Shown here: positions 4,176-49,950 of the stretch, piece after piece
Layout: each line of letters opens with the position of its first letter
Position numbering within the stretch: position 1 is the stretch's first letter
Virus record (IMG/VR): IMGVR_UViG_2565956520_000001
Source of the DNA: a virus
Lineage: Duplodnaviria > Caudoviricetes
DNA length: 64,000 nt
Direction: 5' to 3' (one strand)
Position numbers and translations under genes: made by a program
Notes under the pieces: generated by a model
The model's database searches: none
What the model was told of the DNA's origin: nothing
What the model saw: only the letters and a program-made list of their open reading frames with translations

Positions 4176-4502
4176 TTAAGCGTTAAGCTTCACCCGAACA
4201 GTTTCATCAGCATCAGCCGCAGAAGCGAAAGCGATTCCCGCTCTTACGTTATCAGGAGCCAAAACAGTGATAGCTCCATCCCCATCAAGGTAAACAACGG
4301 TCCCTTGCAAGATTTCCCCGGCGATCTTTGGAAACTCCCAAACCTCTTCCGTTGCAAGTTCACCAATTGCGCCATCTGGAATATCTACAAGAGCGACACC
4401 CACCAAAACCCCGACAGGAACCGGAGAACCAGACAGAACATCCGCTCCGGTGCTGTTTGTCCATGTCATGGTTTTGCCAATCTGAACGTGATTACCAGCC
4501 AT
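4176..4502 (-). CDS. DUF2190-type capsid cement/decoration protein
   Basis: N.VQ.G.T, GVALVDIPDG..G...EVWE.PK, V.VKLN pattern; follows capsid gene. Confidence 0.85.
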   Translation of the reverse strand: MAGNHVQIGKTMTWTNSTGADVLSGSPVPVGVLVGVALVDIPDGAIGELATEEVWEFPKIAGEILQGTVVYLDGDGAITVLAPDNVRAGIAFASAADADETVRVKLNA

Positions 4503-4513
4503 GTTAATTCTCC

Positions 4514-6601
4514 TTATTTACCGGGGTTCTTCTGGAATCCGCGATGATCCATAAGCCCTGCACCAGCTTCGAGACGAACCTTTATTTTAAGGCCGTCTGA
4601 ATCAAAATCAGGCTCTTCATCAACAAATGGGGATTCAATACCGTCAAGGAATGCCACTTCAATAGTATCCACCTGTGCAGGATCACCGATCAGATAATGT
4701 GCATCGACATCAAAATCATCAAGACGAGGTTCGGAAATAGGTTGGAGCTTTCCGGCCCAAGGATTGTGAACACCGGAAGACATATTTGCATCTGGCAGAG
4801 CCGCAGAACGGATAAGAACTTCTGCTTCGGTTTCCTGTGCGACTGGAGTCAGTAGAAAGCGTGGACGCAAATCAAGACGCGCCCCATTCGGACCTTTCTG
4901 CATACGCATAGACTTACGACCAGCATTCAAAGTGGCAGCAGAAACACGCCCCTTAACAGTGGCTTCAAGGTTGTTATGCTTTGCATGGAATAGGTTGTAA
5001 TTGTCGCTCATTTTAGGATTGGAAAGCAGCAAACCATAAACAATATCCGCAACTTTGCGGGCCGAAGCATTACCGAACAGTTGCGGAATACGGGTGAAGA
5101 CTCGTAGATCATCATTAACCAGCATTTCACGGGTAAGGCGCACGTTTTTGCCATAACGGGCAATGCGGTAGCTTTCCATGGAATCCTTGAATGATCCTGT
5201 CTTGTATTCACCGTGTTCGTTGATAAGTTCCAGATCAGGAGCTTCGGACAGACTCACACCGTGGATTTCTTTAAAATCATTGGCGGGGATGATGTTCACC
5301 CAAGGCCGCCAAGTTGCCGGAGCTTCTGCATAAGCTTTAAGCAACACTTTGTTAGTTATTGCCGCAAAGATTGACGGAAAATCACTTGTGGATGCTCCGA
5401 ATTGCTGAGGCCTAAGAACCTGCGATGCAAGTTTTGACTGGGACATTCCACGGGTTGAAACACCGCTTCTTTCCAGAATATCCCTTGCAAGATCGGTAAG
5501 ACGCATCACTCTGAAATCTTCATAGCCCGGTGCGGGTTTTTCTTCGGTTATTCCAGCGCGGAAAAGCATTCCAGATACAGCGGCATCATGAAGCTTTTCA
5601 CCCTCAGTACGTCCGGCAAAAATATGACCGGAAGGTGCAAGTGGCTGGTGCTGGGAACTTAGTTCCGACAGGATCAGCTTATTCAAATCACTTGCCCCTT
5701 TTCCGCCATCAACCAGCTTTTTGCGGAAATCAGCAGATAGCCCGAACATGGTAACCTGATCATCAATAAAATTAATGCGCTGGCGTTCAGCTAGGGCAAC
5801 TTCCTGTTCGTTAACTAACGGTGGTTGAGGCGTAGCACTTTGATTCGCAGGTGCTTGCGGGGTTTGAGCTTGTGCGGGATCTACTTTCGGAGCACCATCC
5901 GCGCTCAACCATGCAGGTGCATCTTCAAGGTTATTCAGGGCTTCGTAATCTAGTCCCATTTCTTTTAATAAGGTGCGGGCAGAGTCCTCAGTGACATTTT
6001 CAAGGCCATTAGCCCGCAGGAAAAGTTTCAACCATTTCTTCATGACCGATTCCTCCGGTTTAGGTTTTGGCCGTTCATTCATCGCCACGGCCTCGGTATC
6101 TCCATCCGCGCCAAGAACGCAGAAGGATGTTTCACGCACAAACGACTTGCGCCACACATATAAAGGTCCAACAAGCTCTTCACCGTTAACGGTAACGGTT
6201 GCACCTACTTTTACTTCTTCAACAGCTTCAGGCCACACCCCTATGGATGCTTGCCACGGAAATTTCTGGTCAGAGAGTTTAATGACTTCCTTCGCATCGT
6301 CCGTATCCAGAAAGAACCCTTCCAGCACCAAGCCGGATTCTTCCAGCTTGATAGAATCAGCAATGCCGATCTTCTTTTTAGGGTCATGTTCCTCAAGAAT
6401 AGGAATGCGCTTTTCTGTACGGATGCCGGAAAGCTCAATGACAAAACGCATGAAACAACGCTGAACAATTGATCCGGTGTAACCGACAATATGAAAGCGG
6501 CGCGGCTTGCCTTCTTCCTGTTCTGATAGATTCAGCCCCGCAGTTAGTTGCAGTGGTGCATTCTCACTTTCTGCAAGGTTCAATGGGAAAATTTTATTCA
6601 C
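4514..6601 (-). CDS. Prohead protease-scaffold-major capsid fusion (Mu gpT-like capsid domain)
   Basis: N-terminal protease (PILEEHD, FPWQASIG), Q/P linker, capsid motifs STSDFP, TREMLVNDDL, DTIEVAFLDG. Confidence 0.88.
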   Translation of the reverse strand: MNKIFPLNLAESENAPLQLTAGLNLSEQEEGKPRRFHIVGYTGSIVQRCFMRFVIELSGIRTEKRIPILEEHDPKKKIGIADSIKLEESGLVLEGFFLDTDDAKEVIKLSDQKFPWQASIGVWPEAVEEVKVGATVTVNGEELVGPLYVWRKSFVRETSFCVLGADGDTEAVAMNERPKPKPEESVMKKWLKLFLRANGLENVTEDSARTLLKEMGLDYEALNNLEDAPAWLSADGAPKVDPAQAQTPQAPANQSATPQPPLVNEQEVALAERQRINFIDDQVTMFGLSADFRKKLVDGGKGASDLNKLILSELSSQHQPLAPSGHIFAGRTEGEKLHDAAVSGMLFRAGITEEKPAPGYEDFRVMRLTDLARDILERSGVSTRGMSQSKLASQVLRPQQFGASTSDFPSIFAAITNKVLLKAYAEAPATWRPWVNIIPANDFKEIHGVSLSEAPDLELINEHGEYKTGSFKDSMESYRIARYGKNVRLTREMLVNDDLRVFTRIPQLFGNASARKVADIVYGLLLSNPKMSDNYNLFHAKHNNLEATVKGRVSAATLNAGRKSMRMQKGPNGARLDLRPRFLLTPVAQETEAEVLIRSAALPDANMSSGVHNPWAGKLQPISEPRLDDFDVDAHYLIGDPAQVDTIEVAFLDGIESPFVDEEPDFDSDGLKIKVRLEAGAGLMDHRGFQKNPGK

Positions 6602-37907: not shown

Positions 37908-40900
37908 TCACTTCATAACCCGCCTCACAACCAGATTCCGCTTCTCCAAAAGACCATCAATCCGCACCCGCTTCTCATCAGGTGTAAGCTTCCTGGAACG
38001 ATGAATCTGTCGCATAGCAGTTTCAATCTGAGCAAGCGCACGGCGTAGCTGATTGTATGGCTGGCGTTTAGCAAGAATCTTTCTGTTATCCGGATCTTTC
38101 ACCAGAGCTTTGGCTTTATCCGCTTCGCCAGTTTTTGCGTAGTTCATTACCGTTGAATAGAGTTCATCGGCTTGCTCAACCATGTCGTACAATTCTGTCA
38201 GATGGCAGCTATGCCTTGAGGGTGTAGATCTAAAGAAACTTTTAATTAGCGGCATGTCGTCTAGACGTCTGGACGGCAATTCCGGTGCATCCACCATTTC
38301 GCGGGTTACAATGTCCGCCATGCTCATCACGTAAACACCCAGCGTTCCGAAATAGCCATTAACAAGATGCTCGATGCGCTTAGGACTAGTTCCTGTCTTC
38401 TCACCAATCAAAGCTGCTGTCTCGCTGGTACGATGATCGCGTTGCGCTCCAGGCTGAAGCCTTTTCAAACGCATAGGAACGATCGCTCTGCCAGTGAAGA
38501 AACTCTTGTCTGCCCACTGCTCAAGAATCGGCGTTACAATCTGCGGAGTGCCTACAGAGAATGTCTGCGTCAGCATAAACTGAAGACGTTCACGAAGCAG
38601 ATCCCCGTCCTTACCATCCAGCGAATACTCGGTTAACCTTTCCGGAAGAGTTCCAAATATGGCTCCAATCTCAAAAGGTTTAGGCATTCTGAAATGTTTT
38701 TCATCCACAAAGAAGTGATAGTAATTGTCCCGATCCCAATGTTCCAGTCCCTTAAATTCTTCCCGATCCCGATTATTCAGATAGAGCAACACAGAAGCCA
38801 GCGCGACCATTGCGCCCTTGGTCATAAATCCGGACGGATTCTCATACGCCCCTCTACCCAATCTATTCAGCCCGACCATTCTTGCACCGAAGAACGGGAC
38901 AGTTTCACAAAGGAACCGTGTGGCCAGCCAGTCACCGCCCATGGAATAATCCATGATGTCCTTGGCTTCATACGCAGCTTCAAGATGACTACCGCCCTTT
39001 TTCTTTACACCTTCATAAAGGCGCGCACGGGTCGCATTCTCAAATGCAGAACCTAAGTCCTGCCATTTCATCCAGCCCAGTTTAGCAAAGTTGGCCAACT
39101 TTTTAGGAGTATCGAGAATTGAGTCACGATCAATTTTATGCTTCTTTACCAGCTTCTCAACCAACAGCTTTGCAGCCGCAGGATCATGCCCAAAAGCATA
39201 ACCACCATGGAAAGCTGCTCCGGCGGCCATCATTTTAATAGTGTCTTCATCCTTACTCAGAGTTTTGATTGCACCCTTGAATGACCCGACCACAGGCAAA
39301 AAAGTTCCAGTCCGATCGACGCCCCAACCGTGGACCGTATCGCGCACAAGGTTGCGAACCATGAAGTCAGGAGTGGAAGTAATTCCAGTTGTAAGCATCC
39401 GCTTAAACAGCCGAGCTGTTTTCATTCCGAAGTTATTCCAGCTCTGCATATTTACCGAAGTCAGCGATCGGAGCAGGAGCGGATCAGCGATGTGGTAATA
39501 GACAGGCTTGCCGTCACGAAGCACAGAAACAACATCCTTTGCATCCGGCTTTACCATCCTAAAAACAGTCTGCAATGAATCACGCTGCGCCTTGGTCATT
39601 TTGGCAACAGCATCTTCATCCCCGAACACTTTAACCAAGGAAGAGCGCAAAGCCTGCCCCTTCAGCTTAAGTGCTTCCCACTTAAATTCTGCATTGGTTG
39701 CAATGCCGATATTCTCAGCATGAACCATGGAAAGTTCCATAGCTCTGTTCTTCACAGAAGTGTCGATCAAATGCGAAAAGTTGCGGATGATATTTTCAAA
39801 CGGATCACCGAGATTCGAAGTTCCACCCCGTAGCCGGCGAATGCCAGAATACTGATTTGCAATTCCCTTGCTACCGTGTGGCGACTTAACACTTGCCTTC
39901 TCTTCACCAGTTTCATTGATACGATAGAAAGGAATATACTCGTCATGTTCCCAAAGAGTGCGACCAGCTGCGTTAATAACTCCGGCATCCTGAGCAAAGT
40001 CCAGAACCTTGGTTTTGAACTCGATATACTTCTTCTGAACCGCTTCATATTGCGCTTCACGGCCAGAATTCAGTTTGCAAAGTTCATCTATTTCCTCTTC
40101 GGTAAACAGATTCTCGCGCCCTTCAGCCATAAGCTTTTTAGCTCGAAGCCCCACAAGCCAGCCAGTGAATCTATCCAACTCATGTGCAACCGGCTCAAAT
40201 ATCGTTGCCAGCCCTTCGCCCTCAACATCCATAGCCCCTTCACGCCAGATAGGTGCGCCGTGCTCGATGACAGCCGCAATCTGATCAGCATGTGAAGTAG
40301 ACATTCTAGCCGCCACATAAGCGGACTCTTCCATATCCGTAACTCCAGCCGCTTTATCAAGATCCTTGAGCGAATCAAAACGATCAAACATGCCCTGGTT
40401 AAACTCAGTGGCCATAAATTCACGAATGCGCCCTATGCGTTCACCAATGGTAGTTTTTTCTTTAACTTGTCCGATCTTGGCCATAGCAGATTCACGAACA
40501 GGATTTGAACGGGAATAAGAAACGGCTTCAGCTCCACCTCTAGGTGAAGGAGAATGTAAACCGTCACCTTGCACTGTCCAGAAAACAGCATCAGCAACTA
40601 TACGGTTAATCTCACGGCGAGTCAGCGAACCGGGCAGACGTATGCGAAGCTTGGCCAGCCATTTCATGACGGCATCAACAACCTTACGCCACACCCCTTT
40701 TTCACGCTGAGTCAGAACCTTATTCTGATCCACCTTTTCAGCAAGCTGAGCCAAATATTCATGACTGGCCATATCTCTGCCGGAATCAGTGGCAAGATCA
40801 AAATCGTAATCCAAAGCTATATCTTTAAATTCTTTACTACGCTTTGCAGATCTCCCAACCTTGCGGAGCATCTGCACATAATCGCTGTCACCAAGAAGCC

Positions 40901-43900
40901 CACGCAATCCGTGATGCGCTCCTTGTTCATGCATCCAGAGTTCCACGGCCCGTTTGCGTGAAGAAATGTTCTCCGCAACCATCCAGACCTTTCCGGTCTT
41001 AGGATCATTGCAGGCTTCACAATAGCCGCCACCCTGCGCATTAAATGCCTTACGGATATGTTCAGGAAGATCTTCGAAAAGACTAACCACTTCCAAAGGC
41101 AGCGCGTTTTCAGCTCGTGCCTGAAGTTCCTGCACAGCTCCGCGCACGGATCTAACAGAAGTAGGATTACGAATAGTGGATGTCTTGGAGAAATGGATTG
41201 GATTATCAGAATCTGAGGATTGACGTTTAGACGCTTTGACGTCTTGACGTCCTGACGTTGTGCCGCTTTGACGGTCGGACGGCTTGCCGCTTTGTTGGCT
41301 TGCATACTCTGCGAGTACGGAAACAAGGGAATCACGGACTTTTTGAATATCTCTAAAATAACGGCTCGACTGATCATGTTTACCAAACACAGCCAGAACC
41401 TTATCAATCATGCGGCGTATTTTACGAGCTACACGGCGAAAAAGAGTAGGGTTTGCAGCTTCCAGTTCATGCCAGAAATCAGGGTCCATGAACTGTTCAC
41501 CGGATAAATTGCCAAGCAGCTCTTCATTAGCTTGCCCTGAAGACAACCCCTTTCCACCCGCTTTTCTAGTCGTGGCGTCAATATCTTTATGAAACCCACG
41601 CCAAGCTTCACCTTTGCGCTGAGACTGAGCAACCATAAGATATTTATTGTAAAGAGCCGGGGCATCACGCTTTAAAAAATGGATTATTTCGTGACCAAGA
41701 AGGAAAAGATGGGGTTCATTGGCATCTGGGCGCATAAAGACAACGCCCTGTTTTAGATCCGCATGAGCATCACCTGGGAGAATAGGTAGATCAGAAGCTA
41801 CATAAGTAATTTCCTTACCGAACAAACCAGCAAGCTTGTCCAACAAAGCAAAATCACCAGTTCTTACTCCTGACTCACTCTTTACTGATGCTGCTGGCAG
41901 GCTTCCTGTTTCAGTCTCTCGCTTTCTTCCGCCCCTAGAATCTGTTCCGGACGGAATTCCTTGCGTTTCTGTGAACTGACTTTCAGCCTCTCGAGTCTGG
42001 CTGCCTCCTGCTCTGCTACTTCCTCTGGATCTGGAAACGGAAACATGCAAGTCAACCGGGTCGACTTCGAAGATGGATCCATCTGCGAATTCGAGTCCGT
42101 ATTCCCTGCGGATTTTTTCCGCGTAAATATCTGTTCGTCTTGTTCTTCGTGGGTTTTCATAACTACTCCGCTTAACGAGATCAATATCACCAAGTGAAGC
42201 CGGAAGTCTATCCAGTTCTTGAGCTATACTTTCAAGCGGATTTTCACCCTGATAGAAAGCCCAGCCCTTTTCGGTTCTGTTCCATTTGGCTCCGGCATCC
42301 TTCAGAACTTTTTTGTTAGCATACGTCTCGCCAGTGACTACCCAGAAACCACCTTTTGAATTCGTAATTCTTTCCAGTTCAAGACCGGCATCATTAAATA
42401 TAGTCTCGCTATCAACTGTCTTAACGAATCTTTCTGGAGCTGTTACGTCCTGAATCCGCTCAAATAGTTCTTCAACTTTGCCAGCGTTAAAATCAATTCT
42501 TGATTTGGTCTGTAAATTCTCAGCACCTTCGCTAACCTTATCAATTATGACGATTCTGGTTTTAACTTTAGTACCGGCACGACCGAAAGTCTCAGGAGGT
42601 AAACCGAATTCGGCAACCTTATGCGCGTGCTCTGCTTCCTCAGATTCATACCACTTATCAAACTTGCGATCTGCCGCCGGACCTTCAGGGAGAATACAAA
42701 CAACTCGGCCACCCTCACGTAAATGAATGAATGCTTTGGCAAGATGATCAACCGCCATTTTGCCACCGCTACCAAACGGCGGATTCATGGCGATCCCGTC
42801 AAACTTATTTACGGCCGCAAGAGTTTCAAACTGATCATTGATTTTGCGCCCGTCACAAATAACAGACATCTTGGAAAACAATTCGTCAGAAGGTTCAACT
42901 ACCGTTATCTCAGCTGATTCAGGAAAGTACCTGGCAATAGCGCCATGTCCGGCTGAAGGCTCCAGAACAGATTGCCCAGGCAACAGATTTAACCATTCAG
43001 CCATCTTAAAACCTAGCGGTTCAGGAGTAGCGAAATAGTCCGCGCCTTCTCTGGCCTTGTTGCGTGAGGTCCGCTTTTGCTGGGAATAGTAATGGGTTTT
43101 AGCCTGATCGAATGGAGAAGACTTGCCGCTAAATGAATCTGACTCTTTGCCTCCCTGCCCTTGTTTCATGCTGGGAGAGCTTGAAGATGAATCAAGATAT
43201 CCTTCACGAAAAGCAGTACGCAGATCACGGGCAAGATCACCCATTGCAAGATTCTCAGCTGCTCCGGCACGTTCAGAAATTTTCTGCCCAAACGCTCTGG
43301 ACTCAAAAGAAAGCCCAGTCTTCAGATACTCAATAACTGCGTCTGACTTTAGGCCGAGGCGATATATCCGTCCTTCAGTTTGAATTGCATCAGTGGGCTT
43401 TGTGGGCAGGTAAAGCGAAACTAGAGCGCGCTGTTTCTCACCAGCTTTATCATGCAGTGAAATTCCTTCCTTCCCTGCATCCTTCTGAACAACAATGACA
43501 TCAACACCGCTCCGATCGTCATTGAAATCATTAACAGCTTTAATTCGATCCCTCTTAGACTCTTTACCGGAAAAGAATGCAGCCTTATCAGTGAAAGCCT
43601 TGTTCATTTCATCGCGCACATTCAAAAGACCACGCAGATCCATCCGTGAATATGCCGGATTGCTTGCAGCCCAAGCATCAAACTGCTTCATAATTTTGGG
43701 ATCACCACTTGCAAACCTTGCAAATCGTGCTCGATTAAATGGATGATCCGGAAGACCTTTATTTCTAGAATGGAAAACAACAACCTTTCGGCCAATATCC
43801 AGATGCTGTTGAACCCTCTCAACCGCATTCTTGGCTTTCAATGCCTCCAGCAAACTCATGGTGTAATGGTAGTCAAAAGCCTTATGTACTATTCCAGATA

Positions 43901-46900
43901 AGGCTGGATATTTTTTATGATCCCACATGGATTCGATCCCGGACTGAATCCTTTGCCCCAGCTCAGCCGGAACATCTACGAACTGCCGTGAATAATCTTT
44001 ATCTAGATTCAAACTCCGACCGGAAAGCGCACCTTTCTTTTTCAACCACTCATTGAACGCCCTTTCCATCAATGCGGAATCAACACCGGCTTCAGGAGTC
44101 GTAAGTTTATTGTAGCGCATTCTGTAGCCGAACTTGCTCATCATAAACTGATCCCAGTTCGATCCACTGTTATATGAACTGTTGGTGTCGCCACCTTTAC
44201 CCATATCGCTATCAAACAAAAAACCGTCCGCATAACGAATCGTTTTATCGTAGGCAAAAGGAGAAGCAGAAAGGAATACAACCTTGGTATTCATGATGCG
44301 GGCTACTTTGTCATCGATGCGCTTCAGCAGTGCTTCAGATAGATATTTGTCGGGGATGTTCCAAGGAGTTTCTTCAAAATTCTCAGTGAGCTTAAAATCC
44401 TTTAGCTTTTTGGCTTCCTTCAGCATGTCACTTTGAAAGACTTTTCTAGCACTGATATCAGGACGATTTGGTCCAGCCAGCCTGTGCATCATATTCAAAG
44501 CATGGGTATCATTACCCTGAGCATTTTCGCAAAGTTTGTGGGATTCATCGAATACGAGAAGATCAAAGTCACGAGCAAACAAGGCTTCGTTCTGCCCAAA
44601 ATTAGCATAGCTTGTGACAATAATGCCTTCACCAGAATCTTTAAGACCTTCAAGCTGGGTAATATCAAGGTGAAGATTTTGACCGTCTTCAATCCAATCC
44701 TGAGCTTTTTTATCGGTCGGAACAACTACGGCTATATTTGTCTTACCCTGCCGGACAAAACGCTTCATAACACCGAGTCCGGTGTACGTTTTTCCCGTAC
44801 CAGTCCCGTTGGTGAAAATGATTCCACGGTTTGTATCATCTTTAGTATTGGAAAAACGTGCTTCAGCTTTGGCAACGTCTTCCTGTTGCTCCGAAAAGAG
44901 AACGGGAAGAGTTTCGCGAATATTGCTTAGATCTTCAGTGCGAACCTGAGTGGAGGAATCCGCTTCTTGTTGAAGACGGACTTTATCGGCTAACGGTAAA
45001 TGTTGATCTGTAGATGTTTTTCGAAGGGCATCGCCCACACTTCCAGAGAGTTCGCTGGATAATCCGGACTTAGATCCCTGAGCTGTTCCTGATGCTCTGG
45101 AGTCAGTCGATTTTCCAGCGTCATCAGTTCTATGGATTCTTCCAGGCTCAACAGTTCCGGAAGCGCGTTCCGCAGTTCCATCCGGCCGCTCTGTTCCAGA
45201 TATGCTGTTATCGCTTCCCGTTCCAGTAGAAGAGGTAGAACCTGAGTGTAGGAGGTTATCGTCTTGCTCAAGTAACCCTGTTTCTCCATATCGTTCTCCA
45301 TTTCCTGAATCACTAGATCCGCCAGTTCCGGACTCGCCGGAAACAGTCCCTTCGCCCAGTTGGTTCTGAGTTTTTGAGTCTGAGCTATCTGATTCCAAAT
45401 GGCTTGAGGTACTTGATACATCTTTAATAATCTCCTTCTTGTCATTTATACTCTCAATAAAAGCCTTGTCAAAACTTTCTTCCGGCTTCGGAATAGACAC
45501 ACCGGGAAGTAGCCCCTGACCGCCATCCGTCATACTTGCAAATTTTGCATATTCTTCACAAAAAAACTGGAACTTCTGTGCTTTTACACCTTCCCATTGT
45601 CTTGCTCCCAACGCATCAGCAAGAACTCTTGTCTTCTTATCATTTAAGCCGGGAACAGTTTCAATAAGTTGTCCCTGATTAAGAAACTGCTTAACCGAAA
45701 TAGATTCACTTCTGGCTTTTCCGGCAATCCTTAAAGCATCTTGAATAGGGGAATTAAGACTCCAACCTTCCCCTCTACTATTTGCCTGAATAAGGGCAGG
45801 TAAAGCTCTATCCAACTTAGCTAAAGCAGATGGAGGAGCCATATCAAGAACATCATAGTTATCAACCACAACACCACGCAAGGTAGACTCAACAAAATCT
45901 TTTCCATCACTGTTTAAAAGTCCGGTTTCTTTGTTGAACAAACGTCCATGCTGTGTATCCTCAATTACACCATCATTTTTTAAACTACTGACAAAATCAG
46001 TTGATCTTGTTGAATCAAGAAACTGACGCAAAGTATCAAAAGAACCGAGTCCACGGCCAAGACTAGCAAGGGAATCTCTGGAGAGCATCCTTCCACGCGA
46101 AACAGCTTCAGCTTTTGGATCCAATCCTTGAGTAAAATCCTGATTGTAGATTCTGGAGGATCTGGAAAGGTCATTTACTTCATCCTGAAGGACTCTAACC
46201 AAAACAGGATTTTTCATTGTTTTGAGCTCTTCAGGCTTAAGGCCAAACTGTTTAGCCTTTCGTCTTAGCGTATTCTTATACTTAGTAGACTGGCCATTAT
46301 CCTGGTCATAAGCGAGAGCCAAAGACATAATACGGGAATTACCGCCAAGCGTAATTCCATCAGAAGTAATAATCGGAGGACCACTTGCAGCTGTAGGATT
46401 ATCATTTATAAAGTGACGAGGCTTAAGCGGTGAAGCATGTTTTTTAACCTTTTGCTGCTCAGCTGCATCAGAGTGATAAGGGCGTTCCTGCGCTTCTTTA
46501 GGATATGAAGGATGTCTGATAAAATTTTTATGAACGTCATGAGAAGGCACGACGTCTTCAAGTTCTCGAACTTCATACCTAATTGCATCTTGCCCGTCTG
46601 TATGTTCCAGCACAGATTCATTACCTTTTAAGCCTGCCGTCTTGACGTCAAGACGTTCTGACGGCAAACCGCCTGTAACTTCGTCTTGCAATTCCTGAAC
46701 AGCAGTATCAAAAACGTCTTCACTTCCCAGCTCCGGCAAAGCATCAAGCTCTGACGTCTGGACGTCTGGACGGTTTAACGGCAAAGCGTCTTGCTGCCCT
46801 GACGCTTCAATAACCTCCGGACTTTCAAGCTGTTCCAGTTCACGCACGGCAATATCCCATACGTCTTCCAGAGATCCGCCCTGATCTCTGTTAGAACTCA

Positions 46901-48410
46901 CTCCTTCATGCTGCTGAAGATCATAATCAGGCTGAGACACAACCTCCGGATCCGCGCCTCTAAATAGATCTTCCCGTTCAAACGGAGTATAAACATCAGG
47001 CTCCTGCGAAGGTGACAGCGAACTTGAATCATCAAAAGACGATGGCCGCCAGCCATCGCGCATTGCCATTTCACGCTCAATGCGGACCTCAAGCTCCGGT
47101 TCAGGCTTGAATCTGTAACGTTCCTGAATGTCACCTTTCAGGCCAGCCATACCTTGCGGAGTCTCGTGCTCAGAATCAATTAAATCTATCGGTCCGGATT
47201 CTTTTAGCGTTTCTTTGCCAAGTATTTTTTCCTGCTTTCCATAGAACTCACTCATTTTTTGAACAGGAGTACGGGTATCGGGCGCAGCGGCTTTTTCAGG
47301 TTGAACAGTTTTATCATCAGCAAGCAGATCAACAGTCATTCCCTGCTTAACCTGTTCGATGTTGGCTATCATCTTATCATCAGAAACCTTGGTTTCCTCA
47401 GACAATCCGGCAGGACCAGACATGACCGAACCGCCTGCGCCTGTCAGTGCAGCCGGACCAATAACGTTCACACCTTCTTTGGCGGCCTGCTTCACGCGCT
47501 CAAAAACACCGGGTTTCATTTCCCCGGTCGTTATATAATGAGCAAGATCCTTTGAAATAGACTCAGTCGGCTCTTCTGCCCATTCGCTAATTCCTTCGAC
47601 AGCCCCAGAACTAACATGCTTGGCTGTTTTAGCTGCAACACCTTGCCCAGCTTTGGAGAACATTTTCCCAAATGAAACTGCATTCAGCCCCGCACTGGCC
47701 AAAGACATCATTTCACCAGCACGAGCTGCTTCCTCTTCACTGCCGCCTTTCTCTAAAACTTCACGGTATGTGCTGGAACCTTCCATAGCACCACCGCCTG
47801 CTCCAGCTCCAACAGCCTGCCCGATCCGCGCAAGCCGCTCGATAAGTTGCGGGGTTAGACTCATAGCCTTACCACCAATATTAATAAGCTTACCCACTGC
47901 CGCACCAGGAATCATGGCCGCGCCAAGTGAAGGCGCAAGATTACCAATCTGAGAAGTCCACCAATCGCCCTTGGCTAAAAGTGATGGATCATCCATCACG
48001 TTACCTTGTAGACGTTTAGGAGCTGCGTAAGATTCACGCACAGGCTTATAATAGTCAGCGATCGACTCACCGGCTTCAGCAACAGAATCACTTCCAATGC
48101 GGTTACCCAGCCATTGCATACCGCCACCGAACGATTCACCAAGTCCGGCTTGGCCAGCAGCAACACCGCGCCCCATTTCAACAACAGGAGCGACAAGTGG
48201 ATCAAACATTCCGAATCCATATCCTGCGTCATCACCAGCTGGGGAATCTTTTGGAATTAGTTCAGGACCATTCTGATTTGTAGTTTCAAAAGAATAAACC
48301 GGACTTCCCTTTTCAGGAGAGTCCGGCATTACATTCTTTCTATTTCCTTCTGCTTGCAGTTCACTGACAGCCTGATCGAAAAGTGTATTCATATCCATAT
48401 TAACCACCAT
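37908..48410 (-). CDS. 3500-aa polyvalent ejection protein: DdrB-like ParB, SF2 (strawberry-notch-like) helicase, N6-adenine MTase, two zincin-like motifs, LPD38-type C-terminus
   Basis: GPPII..DG..LGGNSR; NGTGTGKT/DESH/SASP/QTEGRIYR; LEPSAGHG/NPPFG; GHEIIH; MHEQGAHHG; RMPKPFEIG. Confidence 0.88.
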   Translation of the reverse strand: MVVNMDMNTLFDQAVSELQAEGNRKNVMPDSPEKGSPVYSFETTNQNGPELIPKDSPAGDDAGYGFGMFDPLVAPVVEMGRGVAAGQAGLGESFGGGMQWLGNRIGSDSVAEAGESIADYYKPVRESYAAPKRLQGNVMDDPSLLAKGDWWTSQIGNLAPSLGAAMIPGAAVGKLINIGGKAMSLTPQLIERLARIGQAVGAGAGGGAMEGSSTYREVLEKGGSEEEAARAGEMMSLASAGLNAVSFGKMFSKAGQGVAAKTAKHVSSGAVEGISEWAEEPTESISKDLAHYITTGEMKPGVFERVKQAAKEGVNVIGPAALTGAGGSVMSGPAGLSEETKVSDDKMIANIEQVKQGMTVDLLADDKTVQPEKAAAPDTRTPVQKMSEFYGKQEKILGKETLKESGPIDLIDSEHETPQGMAGLKGDIQERYRFKPEPELEVRIEREMAMRDGWRPSSFDDSSSLSPSQEPDVYTPFEREDLFRGADPEVVSQPDYDLQQHEGVSSNRDQGGSLEDVWDIAVRELEQLESPEVIEASGQQDALPLNRPDVQTSELDALPELGSEDVFDTAVQELQDEVTGGLPSERLDVKTAGLKGNESVLEHTDGQDAIRYEVRELEDVVPSHDVHKNFIRHPSYPKEAQERPYHSDAAEQQKVKKHASPLKPRHFINDNPTAASGPPIITSDGITLGGNSRIMSLALAYDQDNGQSTKYKNTLRRKAKQFGLKPEELKTMKNPVLVRVLQDEVNDLSRSSRIYNQDFTQGLDPKAEAVSRGRMLSRDSLASLGRGLGSFDTLRQFLDSTRSTDFVSSLKNDGVIEDTQHGRLFNKETGLLNSDGKDFVESTLRGVVVDNYDVLDMAPPSALAKLDRALPALIQANSRGEGWSLNSPIQDALRIAGKARSESISVKQFLNQGQLIETVPGLNDKKTRVLADALGARQWEGVKAQKFQFFCEEYAKFASMTDGGQGLLPGVSIPKPEESFDKAFIESINDKKEIIKDVSSTSSHLESDSSDSKTQNQLGEGTVSGESGTGGSSDSGNGERYGETGLLEQDDNLLHSGSTSSTGTGSDNSISGTERPDGTAERASGTVEPGRIHRTDDAGKSTDSRASGTAQGSKSGLSSELSGSVGDALRKTSTDQHLPLADKVRLQQEADSSTQVRTEDLSNIRETLPVLFSEQQEDVAKAEARFSNTKDDTNRGIIFTNGTGTGKTYTGLGVMKRFVRQGKTNIAVVVPTDKKAQDWIEDGQNLHLDITQLEGLKDSGEGIIVTSYANFGQNEALFARDFDLLVFDESHKLCENAQGNDTHALNMMHRLAGPNRPDISARKVFQSDMLKEAKKLKDFKLTENFEETPWNIPDKYLSEALLKRIDDKVARIMNTKVVFLSASPFAYDKTIRYADGFLFDSDMGKGGDTNSSYNSGSNWDQFMMSKFGYRMRYNKLTTPEAGVDSALMERAFNEWLKKKGALSGRSLNLDKDYSRQFVDVPAELGQRIQSGIESMWDHKKYPALSGIVHKAFDYHYTMSLLEALKAKNAVERVQQHLDIGRKVVVFHSRNKGLPDHPFNRARFARFASGDPKIMKQFDAWAASNPAYSRMDLRGLLNVRDEMNKAFTDKAAFFSGKESKRDRIKAVNDFNDDRSGVDVIVVQKDAGKEGISLHDKAGEKQRALVSLYLPTKPTDAIQTEGRIYRLGLKSDAVIEYLKTGLSFESRAFGQKISERAGAAENLAMGDLARDLRTAFREGYLDSSSSSPSMKQGQGGKESDSFSGKSSPFDQAKTHYYSQQKRTSRNKAREGADYFATPEPLGFKMAEWLNLLPGQSVLEPSAGHGAIARYFPESAEITVVEPSDELFSKMSVICDGRKINDQFETLAAVNKFDGIAMNPPFGSGGKMAVDHLAKAFIHLREGGRVVCILPEGPAADRKFDKWYESEEAEHAHKVAEFGLPPETFGRAGTKVKTRIVIIDKVSEGAENLQTKSRIDFNAGKVEELFERIQDVTAPERFVKTVDSETIFNDAGLELERITNSKGGFWVVTGETYANKKVLKDAGAKWNRTEKGWAFYQGENPLESIAQELDRLPASLGDIDLVKRSSYENPRRTRRTDIYAEKIRREYGLEFADGSIFEVDPVDLHVSVSRSRGSSRAGGSQTREAESQFTETQGIPSGTDSRGGRKRETETGSLPAASVKSESGVRTGDFALLDKLAGLFGKEITYVASDLPILPGDAHADLKQGVVFMRPDANEPHLFLLGHEIIHFLKRDAPALYNKYLMVAQSQRKGEAWRGFHKDIDATTRKAGGKGLSSGQANEELLGNLSGEQFMDPDFWHELEAANPTLFRRVARKIRRMIDKVLAVFGKHDQSSRYFRDIQKVRDSLVSVLAEYASQQSGKPSDRQSGTTSGRQDVKASKRQSSDSDNPIHFSKTSTIRNPTSVRSVRGAVQELQARAENALPLEVVSLFEDLPEHIRKAFNAQGGGYCEACNDPKTGKVWMVAENISSRKRAVELWMHEQGAHHGLRGLLGDSDYVQMLRKVGRSAKRSKEFKDIALDYDFDLATDSGRDMASHEYLAQLAEKVDQNKVLTQREKGVWRKVVDAVMKWLAKLRIRLPGSLTRREINRIVADAVFWTVQGDGLHSPSPRGGAEAVSYSRSNPVRESAMAKIGQVKEKTTIGERIGRIREFMATEFNQGMFDRFDSLKDLDKAAGVTDMEESAYVAARMSTSHADQIAAVIEHGAPIWREGAMDVEGEGLATIFEPVAHELDRFTGWLVGLRAKKLMAEGRENLFTEEEIDELCKLNSGREAQYEAVQKKYIEFKTKVLDFAQDAGVINAAGRTLWEHDEYIPFYRINETGEEKASVKSPHGSKGIANQYSGIRRLRGGTSNLGDPFENIIRNFSHLIDTSVKNRAMELSMVHAENIGIATNAEFKWEALKLKGQALRSSLVKVFGDEDAVAKMTKAQRDSLQTVFRMVKPDAKDVVSVLRDGKPVYYHIADPLLLRSLTSVNMQSWNNFGMKTARLFKRMLTTGITSTPDFMVRNLVRDTVHGWGVDRTGTFLPVVGSFKGAIKTLSKDEDTIKMMAAGAAFHGGYAFGHDPAAAKLLVEKLVKKHKIDRDSILDTPKKLANFAKLGWMKWQDLGSAFENATRARLYEGVKKKGGSHLEAAYEAKDIMDYSMGGDWLATRFLCETVPFFGARMVGLNRLGRGAYENPSGFMTKGAMVALASVLLYLNNRDREEFKGLEHWDRDNYYHFFVDEKHFRMPKPFEIGAIFGTLPERLTEYSLDGKDGDLLRERLQFMLTQTFSVGTPQIVTPILEQWADKSFFTGRAIVPMRLKRLQPGAQRDHRTSETAALIGEKTGTSPKRIEHLVNGYFGTLGVYVMSMADIVTREMVDAPELPSRRLDDMPLIKSFFRSTPSRHSCHLTELYDMVEQADELYSTVMNYAKTGEADKAKALVKDPDNRKILAKRQPYNQLRRALAQIETAMRQIHRSRKLTPDEKRVRIDGLLEKRNLVVRRVMK
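38254..38277 (+). repeat. Octamer array E, 3 units, inside giant gene
   Basis: ATGTCGTC TAGACGTC TGGACGGC. Confidence 0.5.
41220..41291 (+). repeat. Octamer array B, 9 units, inside giant gene
   Basis: TTGACGTT TAGACGCT TTGACGTC TTGACGTC CTGACGTT GTGCCGCT TTGACGGT CGGACGGC TTGCCGCT. Confidence 0.85.
44990..45421 (-). CDS. Candidate overprinted gene (143 aa) in the +1 frame of the giant gene
   Basis: AAGGAG-N10-ATG; MYQVPQAIWNQIAQTQKLRTNWAKGLF..., amphipathic L/E-rich sequence. Confidence 0.6.
   Translation of the reverse strand: MYQVPQAIWNQIAQTQKLRTNWAKGLFPASPELADLVIQEMENDMEKQGYLSKTITSYTQVLPLLLEREAITAYLEQSGRMELRNALPELLSLEESIELMTLENRLTPEHQEQLRDLSPDYPANSLEVWAMPFEKHLQINIYR
46634..46673 (+). 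repeat. Octamer array C, 5 units, inside giant gene
   Basis: CTGCCGTC TTGACGTC AAGACGTT CTGACGGC AAACCGCC. Confidence 0.7.
46751..46806 (+). repeat. Octamer array D, 7 units, inside giant gene
   Basis: CTGACGTC TGGACGTC TGGACGGT TTAACGGC AAAGCGTC TTGCTGCC CTGACGCT. Confidence 0.78.
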
Positions 48411-49950
48411 AACCCTGTTGGCTTACTCCAGCGGGAATCTGTTTAGATCTGATCTCAGACTTACTTTCAAGAATCCTACGAGCACCTTGAATTCCGTGCT
48501 GTTTAATAAGCAACTTAACTTCATCAACCTGCTTGCGCTGTTCTGGATCTTCAGCCGGAACAAAATCAGAACCAGCTTTCAAAACCTGCTCATATATTTC
48601 AATTGCCTGCCATGCGGATTTCAGTCTGGCCTTGTCAGTTTGGGATTTAGGAACCCACTGTCCACCTTTGTAGTCATCGACTAACTTTGATGCATCGTTA
48701 AAAGCGTTATTACCCTCACTGGTAAATTCACCTGTATCTAAATCTAGAAGAGTAGTTCCTTTCAAATGGAACGGCTTAAGCGCATCACCTAGAGCTTTTC
48801 GCATATCACCAACTTTCTCACGCGCTTGCTTATCTGGAAGCCCTTGAGTTTCCGCTAAAGTCTTCTGAGTATCAGCATCAGTTTTTCGAGTATCAGCACG
48901 ACTTTTACCTGTATCAGCATAAACTTTACCAGTTTGAGCTTCGGTATGAGCAATATCCGCCCCGGTCTTGGCAAGTCCTGCACGTTTTTCGCGCAGATCA
49001 ACTGAAGTGCGAACATAGCCGGGTAGCTTATCTAATGAATCAACAATTGAAGTACTGCCGTTATCTTCATCAAGCACTACGTATTGAACGCCCTGCGAAT
49101 AATCGGGACTGTTCTGCGGCACTGCGTGAACGAGATGCCCTTGCTTATTAACCAGCGGGATCCACTTTGAAGGATCTTTCATCACTTCAGCATTTCCCTG
49201 GCGAGTAGCTTCCATGTAACGGTCAGCTGCTCCAGCAAAAACAGGGTTATAAGCTTTACCGTCAAGAGCTACCTTTTCGCCGGATAAAAACTCTCTGATT
49301 GCATCCCCGGTTTGCCCTACGGTCAGCCGCCTGCCTGTGCCAGTCCAGCCGCCCTCTTTATCAGAACGAAATTCAATGCCGTATGTTTTAGAACGCTGAT
49401 CAAAATCTGTAAGGCGATAGGGCATGGGAGCCATTTCAGAAGCTCTTTTCATATCGATAACTGCCCCGTCAAAGTTGCCTTCGTCTAAAGACTTAAGTGC
49501 ATCCCCGCCTACCTTTCGAAAATCCTGATACTCTTTATCGATTCTACCCATACGCTTTTTACGCAGAGCTTCTTTGCCGTCTTGAAATTTAGTGGCCACA
49601 TCTGCGGCATGACCAAACGCAGAAATTCCGGCCAAGGTTGTAGGAGCTTTAACGGCATCAAAGTCCCAATTATTAGTTTGCAATTCGCCAACAAGCCGCT
49701 CTGTTTCCAGCCGAACAGACTTATTGAATTGCGACTGTTCTGCCGCCTCACGTTCACGATGCATTGCATAGGCTTTACTCTGACTTCTTTGACTTACGTT
49801 CTTCGGCATTCCATTACCCGAAGCCAAAGAATTAAATGCCCGATCCGTTTGCTGGCCATCAGTATAATCATTCATCATACCAGTTAATGAACCCATTGCC
49901 CCGACAAGCTGACCTGCGTATTCGTCTCCCGCCATTCCAAATCCACTCAT
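48400..49950 (-). CDS. Putative internal virion/ejection protein
   Basis: Helical, Gly-rich N-terminus; directly upstream of giant gene. Confidence 0.62.
   Translation of the reverse strand: MSGFGMAGDEYAGQLVGAMGSLTGMMNDYTDGQQTDRAFNSLASGNGMPKNVSQRSQSKAYAMHREREAAEQSQFNKSVRLETERLVGELQTNNWDFDAVKAPTTLAGISAFGHAADVATKFQDGKEALRKKRMGRIDKEYQDFRKVGGDALKSLDEGNFDGAVIDMKRASEMAPMPYRLTDFDQRSKTYGIEFRSDKEGGWTGTGRRLTVGQTGDAIREFLSGEKVALDGKAYNPVFAGAADRYMEATRQGNAEVMKDPSKWIPLVNKQGHLVHAVPQNSPDYSQGVQYVVLDEDNGSTSIVDSLDKLPGYVRTSVDLREKRAGLAKTGADIAHTEAQTGKVYADTGKSRADTRKTDADTQKTLAETQGLPDKQAREKVGDMRKALGDALKPFHLKGTTLLDLDTGEFTSEGNNAFNDASKLVDDYKGGQWVPKSQTDKARLKSAWQAIEIYEQVLKAGSDFVPAEDPEQRKQVDEVKLLIKQHGIQGARRILESKSEIRSKQIPAGVSQQGYGG

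Follow-up and report, generated by a model that had tools for sequence, protein, structure and literature searches.

Among the closest described parallels to the locus analysed here is the embedded class of Rz1-in-Rz phage spanin genes, described for JC1 (PMC9144972), and classical viral overprinting, in which the embedded new frame is usually the disordered one, has been reviewed (PMC8227390, PMC6195259). The window that we analysed is a 64,000-nucleotide stretch of tailed-virus DNA (Caudoviricetes; IMG/VR record IMGVR_UViG_2565956520_000001) with a candidate small gene nested in a giant one. Like Rz1 within Rz, this is a complete same-strand gene in the +1 frame with its own start signals, in a tailed phage, conserved and also occurring in separated forms. 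In the spanin case both frames encode functional sequence, Rz and Rz1 being the two subunits of a single lysis complex, whereas the host frame here encodes only a disordered linker within a protein of 3,500 aa; moreover, the nested product, unlike Rz1, is predicted to be a globular helical domain of 125 residues, and it belongs to an unrelated, uncharacterised family. As in classical overprinting, one stretch of DNA carries two frames under asymmetric selection, with one product biased in composition and disordered. Unlike the usual case, the embedded frame is the one predicted to fold and has stand-alone relatives, and the long host frame is disordered and fast-evolving; the linker may therefore be the younger of the two readings.

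The host gene itself recalls the Dar antirestriction system of phage P1 (DarB, DdrB, Ulx and DdrA) with its polyvalent proteins (PMC5512222), in that it combines, among virion genes, a DdrB-like ParB domain with a helicase and methylase like those of DarB; in P1 too, small accessory genes adjoin darB and ddrB. However, P1 ulx lies downstream of darB without overlap and P1 iddB is an antisense ORF, and we rejected Ulx, DdrA and IddB as relatives, none having detectable similarity to the nested protein (BLASTP E of at least 0.72; hhalign of a 112-sequence profile, probability 0.1%). Neither PMC5512222 nor PMC9144972 mentions such an embedded gene, and no earlier report of it was found in the accessible literature that was searched.

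The nested reading frame and its host gene

The features of the locus, all on the minus strand, are as follows.

37908 to 48410, minus strand: host gene for a DarB-like polyvalent virion protein of 3,500 aa, with DdrB-ParB, SF2 helicase, N6-methylase-like and LPD38 modules
46188 to 46583, minus strand: DdrB-like ParB domain, residues 610-741 (Pfam)
45443 to 45445, minus strand: in-frame ATG further upstream, from which the product would be 151 aa; without Shine-Dalgarno sequence and not conserved
45432 to 45437, minus strand: Shine-Dalgarno sequence AAGGAG, separated from the nested ATG by the 10-nt spacer ATTATTAAAG
45421 to 45419, minus strand: nested ATG start, with the nested stop TAG at 44992 to 44990
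44990 to 45421, minus strand: nested gene in the giant gene's +1 frame, comprising 143 codons and the stop TAG
44988 to 45422, minus strand: main-frame linker, residues 997-1141, of disordered composition and without stops
44787 to 44807, minus strand: helicase Walker A motif GTGTGKT, residues 1202-1208, 61 codons past the nested stop

The giant gene is part of the structural module of a podovirus-like prophage, downstream of genes for the portal, major head, tail fibre and internal virion proteins, and has the hallmarks of a phage-type polyvalent protein, namely several effector domains encoded among virion genes. Pfam matches comprise ddrB-ParB (1.3e-19), ResIII (4.5e-11, residues 1171-1296) and LPD38 (3.9e-39). 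The main frame had originally been read as a featureless S/G/T/D linker between ParB-like and helicase modules, and both its composition (73% G/S/T/D/N/P/Q/E, 12% hydrophobic) and its position between the DdrB-ParB and ResIII domains bear this out.

The original prediction also placed an AAGGAG and an ATG at the head of a 143-codon +1 ORF, and this was confirmed, the ORF running from 45421 to 44990. The open +1 stretch extends a further 8 codons upstream of this start, up to the ATG at 45445, which is probably not the nested start because it lacks a Shine-Dalgarno sequence and is not conserved. Family alignment places the start at 45421, where methionine is conserved in 90% of 112 sequences; residues 1-120 form the conserved core, and the final ~23 residues are not conserved. 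When the codon-usage score of the +1 frame was scanned along the whole 10.5-kb gene, its maximum fell exactly at the nested ORF. A search of the minus strand ahead of the nested ATG yielded no sigma-70-like promoter.

Does the ORF exceed what chance would leave open in such a linker? On one alternative the ORF would be accidental and AAGGAG merely codons for K-E-I, the +1 frame rarely meeting a stop because the linker is poor in Leu, Val, Ile and Met codons. We permuted synonymous codons while keeping the main-frame protein constant. The +1 frame was open at the nested site in 12% of these shuffles and a +1 ORF of at least 151 codons appeared somewhere in the giant gene in 65% of them, so the length of the nested ORF by itself is within chance (P about 0.12). 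Indeed, the same giant gene holds a longer +1 ORF, of 196 codons at 40817-41407, for which tblastn found no homologue. What goes beyond chance for the nested ORF is the comparative evidence.

Conservation and selection in the two frames

tblastn with the nested protein matched six phages and one plasmid (E from 9e-15 to 4e-6), every match falling in the +1 frame of an annotated giant CDS, whereas the main-frame translation of the same bases found nothing at E<=10. The same arrangement was present in six IMG/VR loci, in loci L019, L034 and L038, and in six genome contigs (Roseateles, Rhodocyclaceae, Verrucomicrobiae, Pyrinomonadaceae, Microbulbifer and Luteolibacter). Across phages, plasmid and prophages from several phyla, all 24 related loci examined have this ORF in the +1 frame of a giant ORF, which bears out the suggestion that other polyvalent proteins hide the same gene. 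That annotation would miss it proved equally correct: all seven GenBank, RefSeq and PLSDB records show the giant CDS alone there.

The position of the nested gene is strict downstream and loose upstream. Its stop lies 34-65 codons from the Walker A motif (21 loci), and the main frame upstream of it varies from 15 to >2,400 codons. The phages matching this helicase subtype (n=6) are the same six that carry the nested gene, and it is absent from phages that match the ParB part only.

The starts of the nested copies bear on a second alternative, that programmed +1 frameshifting of ribosomes on the giant ORF yields a truncated product, the N-terminal module joined to the small domain. The invariable +1 relation, the presence of both ORFs on one mRNA and the lack of a separate minus-strand promoter upstream would all suit such an event. 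However, in L012-L017 a stop codon immediately precedes the nested ATG, and in L003, L004 and L006 an in-frame stop lies 2-4 codons before it, so a frameshift would have to fall inside the conserved domain. The nested copies share the N-terminus M-x-Q-[VAI]-P..WN.IA, and purine-rich Shine-Dalgarno-like runs lie 7-14 nt upstream of the start in most proteobacterial homologues (two Verrucomicrobia copies have no obvious one). Such runs, the methionine conserved in 90% of sequences and the identical start position of the stand-alone genes described below argue against frameshifting, which we consider very improbable. Internal initiation at the nested gene's own Shine-Dalgarno sequence and ATG, on the late mRNA of the giant gene, would be the most likely route of expression.

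Substitution patterns distinguish the two frames directly. Inside the nested ORF, pairwise differences at main-frame codon positions 1/2/3 number 276/168/116, against 111/58/389 immediately past it; codon-position variability thus flips to the nested frame inside the nested ORF only. The flip is repeated in a Vibrio phage pair and in the Skulduggery/Parlo/ZX1 trio, giving three independent lineages in all, with chi-square p-values (1e-59, 1e-5 and 1e-14) that overstate significance because pairwise counts are interdependent in any group larger than two sequences. Over the same bases dN/dS is 0.23-0.39 in the nested frame versus 1.1-2.4 in the main frame, and that of the main frame in the flanks is 0.03-0.31. 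These data support purifying selection on the nested frame; the main-frame linker evolves like its off-frame shadow.

Such a shadow is also what one would see if the giant ORF were really three separate genes (upstream module, small gene and helicase) and its open main frame an untranslated coincidence. The main-frame dN/dS above one is consistent with this arrangement, as is L034, where a gene caller places the start of the giant gene 45 nt past the small one and where an open main frame is statistically unremarkable. However, no main-frame stop occurs over the nested gene in any nested locus examined for it. The informative test of this openness is resampling with gene-wide codon usage: given the nested protein and the codon usage of the gene (genome 44-47% GC), ~11 main-frame stops are expected here and none is observed, and the frame was stop-free in 0 of 5,000 resamplings (P<2e-4). 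When the synonymous codons were instead permuted within each gene, P ranged from 0.02 to 0.43 between loci; this is a weak test of openness, since the codon usage of the gene itself already reflects the constraint. The corresponding frame of stand-alone copies has 1-4 stops in six of seven cases. Taken with these counts, three separate genes appear very improbable.

Stand-alone relatives and predicted fold

Homologues of the nested gene also stand alone on integrative elements, where they begin at the same position as the nested copies. Between one of them, P0003 (128 aa), and a nested copy, homology is limited to the small gene itself. Carriers include small integrative or satellite-like elements that encode an integrase, AlpA and a primase; we looked upstream of the stand-alone genes for a conserved partner ORF and did not find one. 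Type I R-M operons occur near the copy in three of about eight contexts, either directly downstream or about 4 kb away, and other stand-alone copies have no R-M neighbour. The three contexts are defence- or island-rich DNA, in which type I systems are common. A profile search returned 528 protein clusters at E<=1e-3, of which 398 reached E<=1e-10; most are of 120-130 aa and align from residue 1, and the family is mostly acidic (median pI 5.05, net charge -5).

AlphaFold2, run on the 112-sequence alignment, predicted a confident all-helical domain (pLDDT 89, pTM 0.81; residues 1-120 above 90) with low confidence in the final ~23 residues. Searches with this model against the PDB gave a best E-value of 2.7 with Foldseek, and the best hit of a wide VIA-align search had a Z of 4.4 and an rmsd of 5.1 over 91 residues, neither of them rising above noise. 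A first, weaker model gave nothing above noise in Foldseek searches of the PDB and BFVD, and an ESM Atlas search reached a best score of 0.89, below the useful range. By sequence, a profile search of the PDB yielded no usable hit (best E-value 0.046); PHROGs, NCBIfam and PADLOC gave no significant match to the window's protein, and four stand-alone relatives matched nothing in NCBIfam or PADLOC. The Pfam family DUF3501 was rejected for the nested protein because its hit, with an E-value of 0.013, scored 16 bits and so fell below the cut-off of 25.

The prediction that selection acts on the nested frame is borne out by the codon-position flip, the dN/dS values, the tblastn matches confined to that frame, the stand-alone homologues and the confident fold. 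An accidental ORF is scarcely credible: it is refuted by the comparative data, namely conservation of the nested but not the main frame across phyla, the two selection measures, and the stand-alone homologues, profile clusters and predicted fold. We conclude that the giant gene's linker very probably contains a genuine same-strand overlapping gene. Its product would be a small, all-helical, mildly acidic protein of ~125 residues (143 aa here), made from the +1 frame of the inter-module linker. Over ~430 bases, selection would act on the amino acids of the nested frame and the main frame would be constrained only to remain open and hydrophilic; the linker would therefore amount to the small gene's shadow. 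With the long host frame in the passive role, the locus would be an unusually clear example of dual coding among tailed phages.

Candidate function and possible origin of the overlap

In the giant genes examined the small gene always lies immediately ahead of the SF2 helicase/N6-methylase module, whatever precedes it, and it also stands alone on integrative elements. This constant position suggests a link between the small protein and that module, and the original suggestion that the small protein may chaperone or inhibit the neighbouring helicase-methylase would fit it. We tentatively propose, with somewhat less than even confidence, that helicase-methylase machines of the DarB or type I restriction type have in the small protein an accessory factor, be it a partner, a chaperone or a regulator; produced alongside the giant protein, it would aid the element's escape from restriction on entry.

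Alternatively, the protein may be a self-standing anti-defence effector, for example an inhibitor of host type I restriction, that acts independently of the giant protein and is carried by diverse mobile elements for entry into new hosts. The stand-alone copies on small integrative or satellite-like elements, the three that adjoin type I R-M operons and the mostly acidic members are consistent with this, as are the records that annotate the host gene as DarB-like antirestriction. However, expression in phages would be late, from structural-gene mRNA, unless the protein is packaged; the nested protein has no similarity to ArdA, KlcA/ArdB, Ocr or any other Pfam or PADLOC family; and the strict pre-helicase position suggests a tie to the helicase module. 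An independent effector of this type is possible but rather unlikely.

A further reading concerns how the overlap arose. In this rather unlikely scenario, the small protein would represent an undescribed family with a new helical fold, a mobile-element factor working with or against helicase-methylase (type I-like) restriction, and the linker (~145 residues) of the giant, injected proteins would have originated when an already existing gene was read through in another frame, two module genes having fused across a gene that still functioned. The finding bears on the modular assembly of polyvalent proteins and on the habit of treating inter-domain linkers as mere spacers, and the linkers of giant phage and plasmid proteins are worth screening for alternative-frame genes. 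The position before the helicase-methylase module, together with the copies beside type I R-M operons, makes the small protein a concrete candidate player in restriction and anti-restriction.

The nested gene adds a very probably real gene to phages, prophages and a plasmid publicly annotated with the giant CDS alone. Its family comprises hundreds of clusters and has a confidently predicted fold; it is unnamed, and searches of family and structure libraries returned no match. One further carrier was present in a sample of 400 same-phylum genomes.

The nested frame in its giant host gene

The nested ORF lies within a gene of 3,500 codons. Besides ParB and helicase modules, Pfam detects LPD38 at the C-terminus of the gene's product and, weakly, a methyltransferase. 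Genes for portal or adaptor, major head, tail-fibre and internal-virion proteins lie upstream, and the window is itself part of a 4.18-Mb bacterial genome; on these grounds we take the giant gene, within a podovirus-like prophage, to encode a DarB-like polyvalent virion protein of the phage type. Its start overlaps the 3' end of a 516-aa gene (48400-49950) by 11 nt (48400-48410), which suggests translational coupling in a virion-protein operon.

Features of the giant gene and its +1 frame
48410 to 37908, minus strand: giant ORF, 3,500 codons
giant protein residues 610-741: DdrB-like ParB domain (Pfam)
giant protein residues 1171-1296: ResIII/SF2 helicase (Pfam), with a weak Helicase_C match
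45437-45432, minus strand: AAGGAG (SD), followed by a 10-nt spacer
45421 (ATG) to 44990 (TAG), minus strand: nested ORF, 143 codons, frame +1, overlapping main-frame residues 997-1141
40817-41407, minus strand: longest +1-frame ORF of the giant gene, 196 codons, used as negative control

The AAGGAG, the ATG and the 143-codon +1-frame ORF are as originally described, on the minus strand, and the main frame over the same bases is indeed the featureless linker it had been taken for, with 73% G/S/T/D/N/P/Q/E and 12% hydrophobic residues. Read in the nested frame, these bases give 36% hydrophobic residues and a pI of 4.7. The nested ORF is by itself not beyond chance: when synonymous codons were shuffled with the giant protein kept fixed, the +1 frame stayed open over the nested stretch in 12% of trials, and 65% produced, at some place in the gene, a +1 ORF of 151 codons or more. 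A search of phage records with the 196-codon control yielded no homologue (best E = 9), so it looks like a chance ORF. The reverse test, conditioned on the nested protein and on codon usage in the gene, predicted ∼11 main-frame stops, and none of 5,000 resamplings was free of them. Nowhere in the whole 10.5-kb gene is the +1 frame's codon-usage score higher than at the nested ORF, where the main-frame score dips.

Homologues and frame-specific selection

A tblastn search of 50,697 phage records and 72,556 plasmids with the nested protein returned seven distinct matches (E 9e-15 to 4e-6, identity 33-43%), in Pseudomonas phage Skulduggery, Serratia phage Parlo, Klebsiella phage ZX1, Ruegeria phage 45A6, Vibrio phages D274 and 1.232.O, and one Comamonas plasmid. 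By record coordinates, all seven lie in the +1 frame of an annotated giant CDS, named as a DarB-like antirestriction, PLxRFG or LPD38 protein, and the nested gene is annotated in none of them, as the original prediction had anticipated. The main-frame translation of the nested-ORF bases found no match at E<=10, and a 721-residue main-frame query matched the phages only from the first residue past the nested gene onward. The same layout recurs in six IMG/VR contigs of ∼61 kb, six bacterial genome contigs (Beta-/Gammaproteobacteria, Verrucomicrobia, Acidobacteria), a short metagenome contig, locus L034 and another genome of the window's phylum. Other polyvalent proteins thus do hide the same gene: in each of the 24 giant-gene loci examined, a +1-frame ORF opens with M-x-Q-[VAI]-P..WN.IA, and an SD-like purine run stands 7-14 nt 5' of the ATG in most of the proteobacterial copies. 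A TAA directly precedes the ATG in L012-L017. That the nested frame is reached as a programmed frameshift product is unlikely, given the stops just 5' of the ATG and stand-alone genes, outside any giant ORF, that start at the same Met.

In five IMG/VR relatives with a gap-free alignment, we also sorted the variable columns according to main-frame codon position.

Variable columns at main-frame positions 1/2/3
Upstream of the nested ORF: 38/18/85
In the nested ORF: 52/30/21
Downstream of the nested ORF: 39/34/106

These counts show that the wobble position switches to the nested frame exactly within the nested ORF; for the IMG/VR set, pairwise comparison gives a chi-square p of 1e-59. The flip recurs in the Vibrio phage pair (p 1e-5) and in the Skulduggery/Parlo/ZX1 trio (p 1e-14), although all these p-values are generous, since pairwise counts within groups are not independent. 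Pairwise dN/dS over the nested ORF is 0.23-0.39 in the nested frame versus 1.1-2.4 in the main frame; in the flanks, the main frame gives 0.03-0.31 and the +1 frame ∼1-3. The proposal that selection acts on the nested frame is therefore borne out in three lineages. Between D274 and 1.232.O (L003 and L006), the nested stretch is 95% identical in DNA, against 69% for the 300 nt upstream and 80% for the 300 nt downstream, a local conservation island as expected from the double constraint of dual coding.

In some loci the region is disrupted. Partial matches with a frame change occur in genome bins of a Verrucomicrobiaceae (L030:1701-2134) and an alphaproteobacterium (L031:7950-8366), and are probably decayed or misassembled. 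The giant-gene region of L033 (8001-13000) consists of many short called genes, beginning with 552 aa with the family domain C-terminal, then ResIII (139 aa) and Helicase_C (501 aa), and looks like a frameshifted assembly or broken gene.

An uncharacterised protein family and its genomic company

The nested ORF is a genuine overlapping gene that is widespread and lacks annotation; its product belongs to an uncharacterised family. Genes embedded in another on the same strand have precedents in phages, such as Rz1 in Rz (PMC9144972), but a gene in the linker of these giant proteins is reported neither in the polyvalent-protein survey (PMC5512222), nor in the JC1/Bcep22 paper (PMC9144972), nor in the literature found by full-text searches.

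A word-based search found two called family proteins of 126-128 aa. The gene for the 128-aa P0003 stands alone, on an island that also carries integrase, AlpA, primase, VapE and small terminase genes, and is followed by an Mrr-like nuclease, hsdM, hsdS and hsdR; P0003 is 63% identical to nested copy L025 in the nested frame, with homology limited to the small gene. A profile search of 1.84 billion representatives gave 528 clusters at E<=1e-3 (398 at E<=1e-10), mostly of 120-130 aa and matching from residue 1. Many come from short metagenome contigs, L019 (311-685) among them, where gene callers chose the nested over the giant frame and let the helicase part begin at a codon inside it, so that the family already sits in protein collections as hundreds of anonymous ∼125-aa proteins. 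Most of its members are acidic (median pI 5.05). Searches of Pfam, PHROGs, NCBIfam, PADLOC, PDB sequences and the ESM Atlas gave no match. Fold prediction gave a confident all-helical domain with 112 sequences (AlphaFold2, mean pLDDT 89, pTM 0.81, residues 1-120 above 90) and a pLDDT of 67 with nine; searches with the model reached at best a Foldseek E of 2.7 and a VIA Z of 4.4.

Longer stand-alone proteins of 201-362 aa (L023:7001-8089, L035:5515-6276, L020:7001-7606, L040:8001-8627, L041:8001-8867) carry the family domain N-terminally and have C-terminal extensions lacking a Pfam match; immediately after the L023 gene come hsdM, hsdS, DarT, Macro and hsdR genes. Among the phage P1 accessory proteins of the Dar antirestriction system, Ulx, DdrA and IddB show no detectable sequence similarity to the family. 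P1 does annotate iddB inside ddrB (L011:26577-26975), but on the opposite strand.

The distance from the nested stop to the helicase Walker A is 34-65 codons, mostly 49-51 (21 loci), and the main frame upstream of the nested gene spans 15 to more than 2,400 codons. The nested gene is carried by exactly those six phages that match this helicase subtype, and it is absent from phages matching the ParB part only. Stand-alone or N-terminally fused forms occur on small integrative or satellite-like elements or in defence-type neighbourhoods, and in three contexts they lie directly upstream of type I R-M operons or ∼4 kb away; DarT and a Macro-domain gene are present in one of the three. An SF2 helicase joined to an N6-adenine methylase is common to DarB-like modules and type I enzymes, and we therefore tentatively favour the nested protein as an accessory factor of such helicase-methylase machines. 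A self-standing anti-restriction effector is somewhat less likely, and the remaining probability falls to a packaging or assembly chaperone, or another role.

Constraint and origin of the two frames

The main frame is stop-free over the nested gene in every nested locus examined for it, whereas six of seven stand-alone copies have 1-4 stops in the equivalent frame, which indicates that continuity of the giant ORF is kept by selection and speaks against splitting this ORF into three genes. In L034, the gene caller places the giant-gene start 45 nt past the small gene. There the small gene (4317-4727) stands at the extreme 5' end of a giant protein (4772 onward) with helicase, RadC and LPD38; a ParB module is missing upstream, just 15 codons of open main frame precede the nested ATG, and the locus may be an unfused or minimally overlapping form. 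Within the continuous giant ORF, the main-frame sequence drifts as a shadow of the nested gene, its ..GRERGD.., for example, mirroring the conserved PLLxENEAI.

In a maximum-likelihood tree of 22 nested and seven stand-alone copies the two states are intermixed, and at least two state changes are required by well-supported branches; nested L025 groups with four stand-alone genes in a clade with 100/99 support. A folded small protein set against a disordered, shadow-like linker suggests that, of the two readings, the linker's may be the younger. A recent escape from a giant gene would also be compatible with the near-open shadow frame of P0003, which has one stop.
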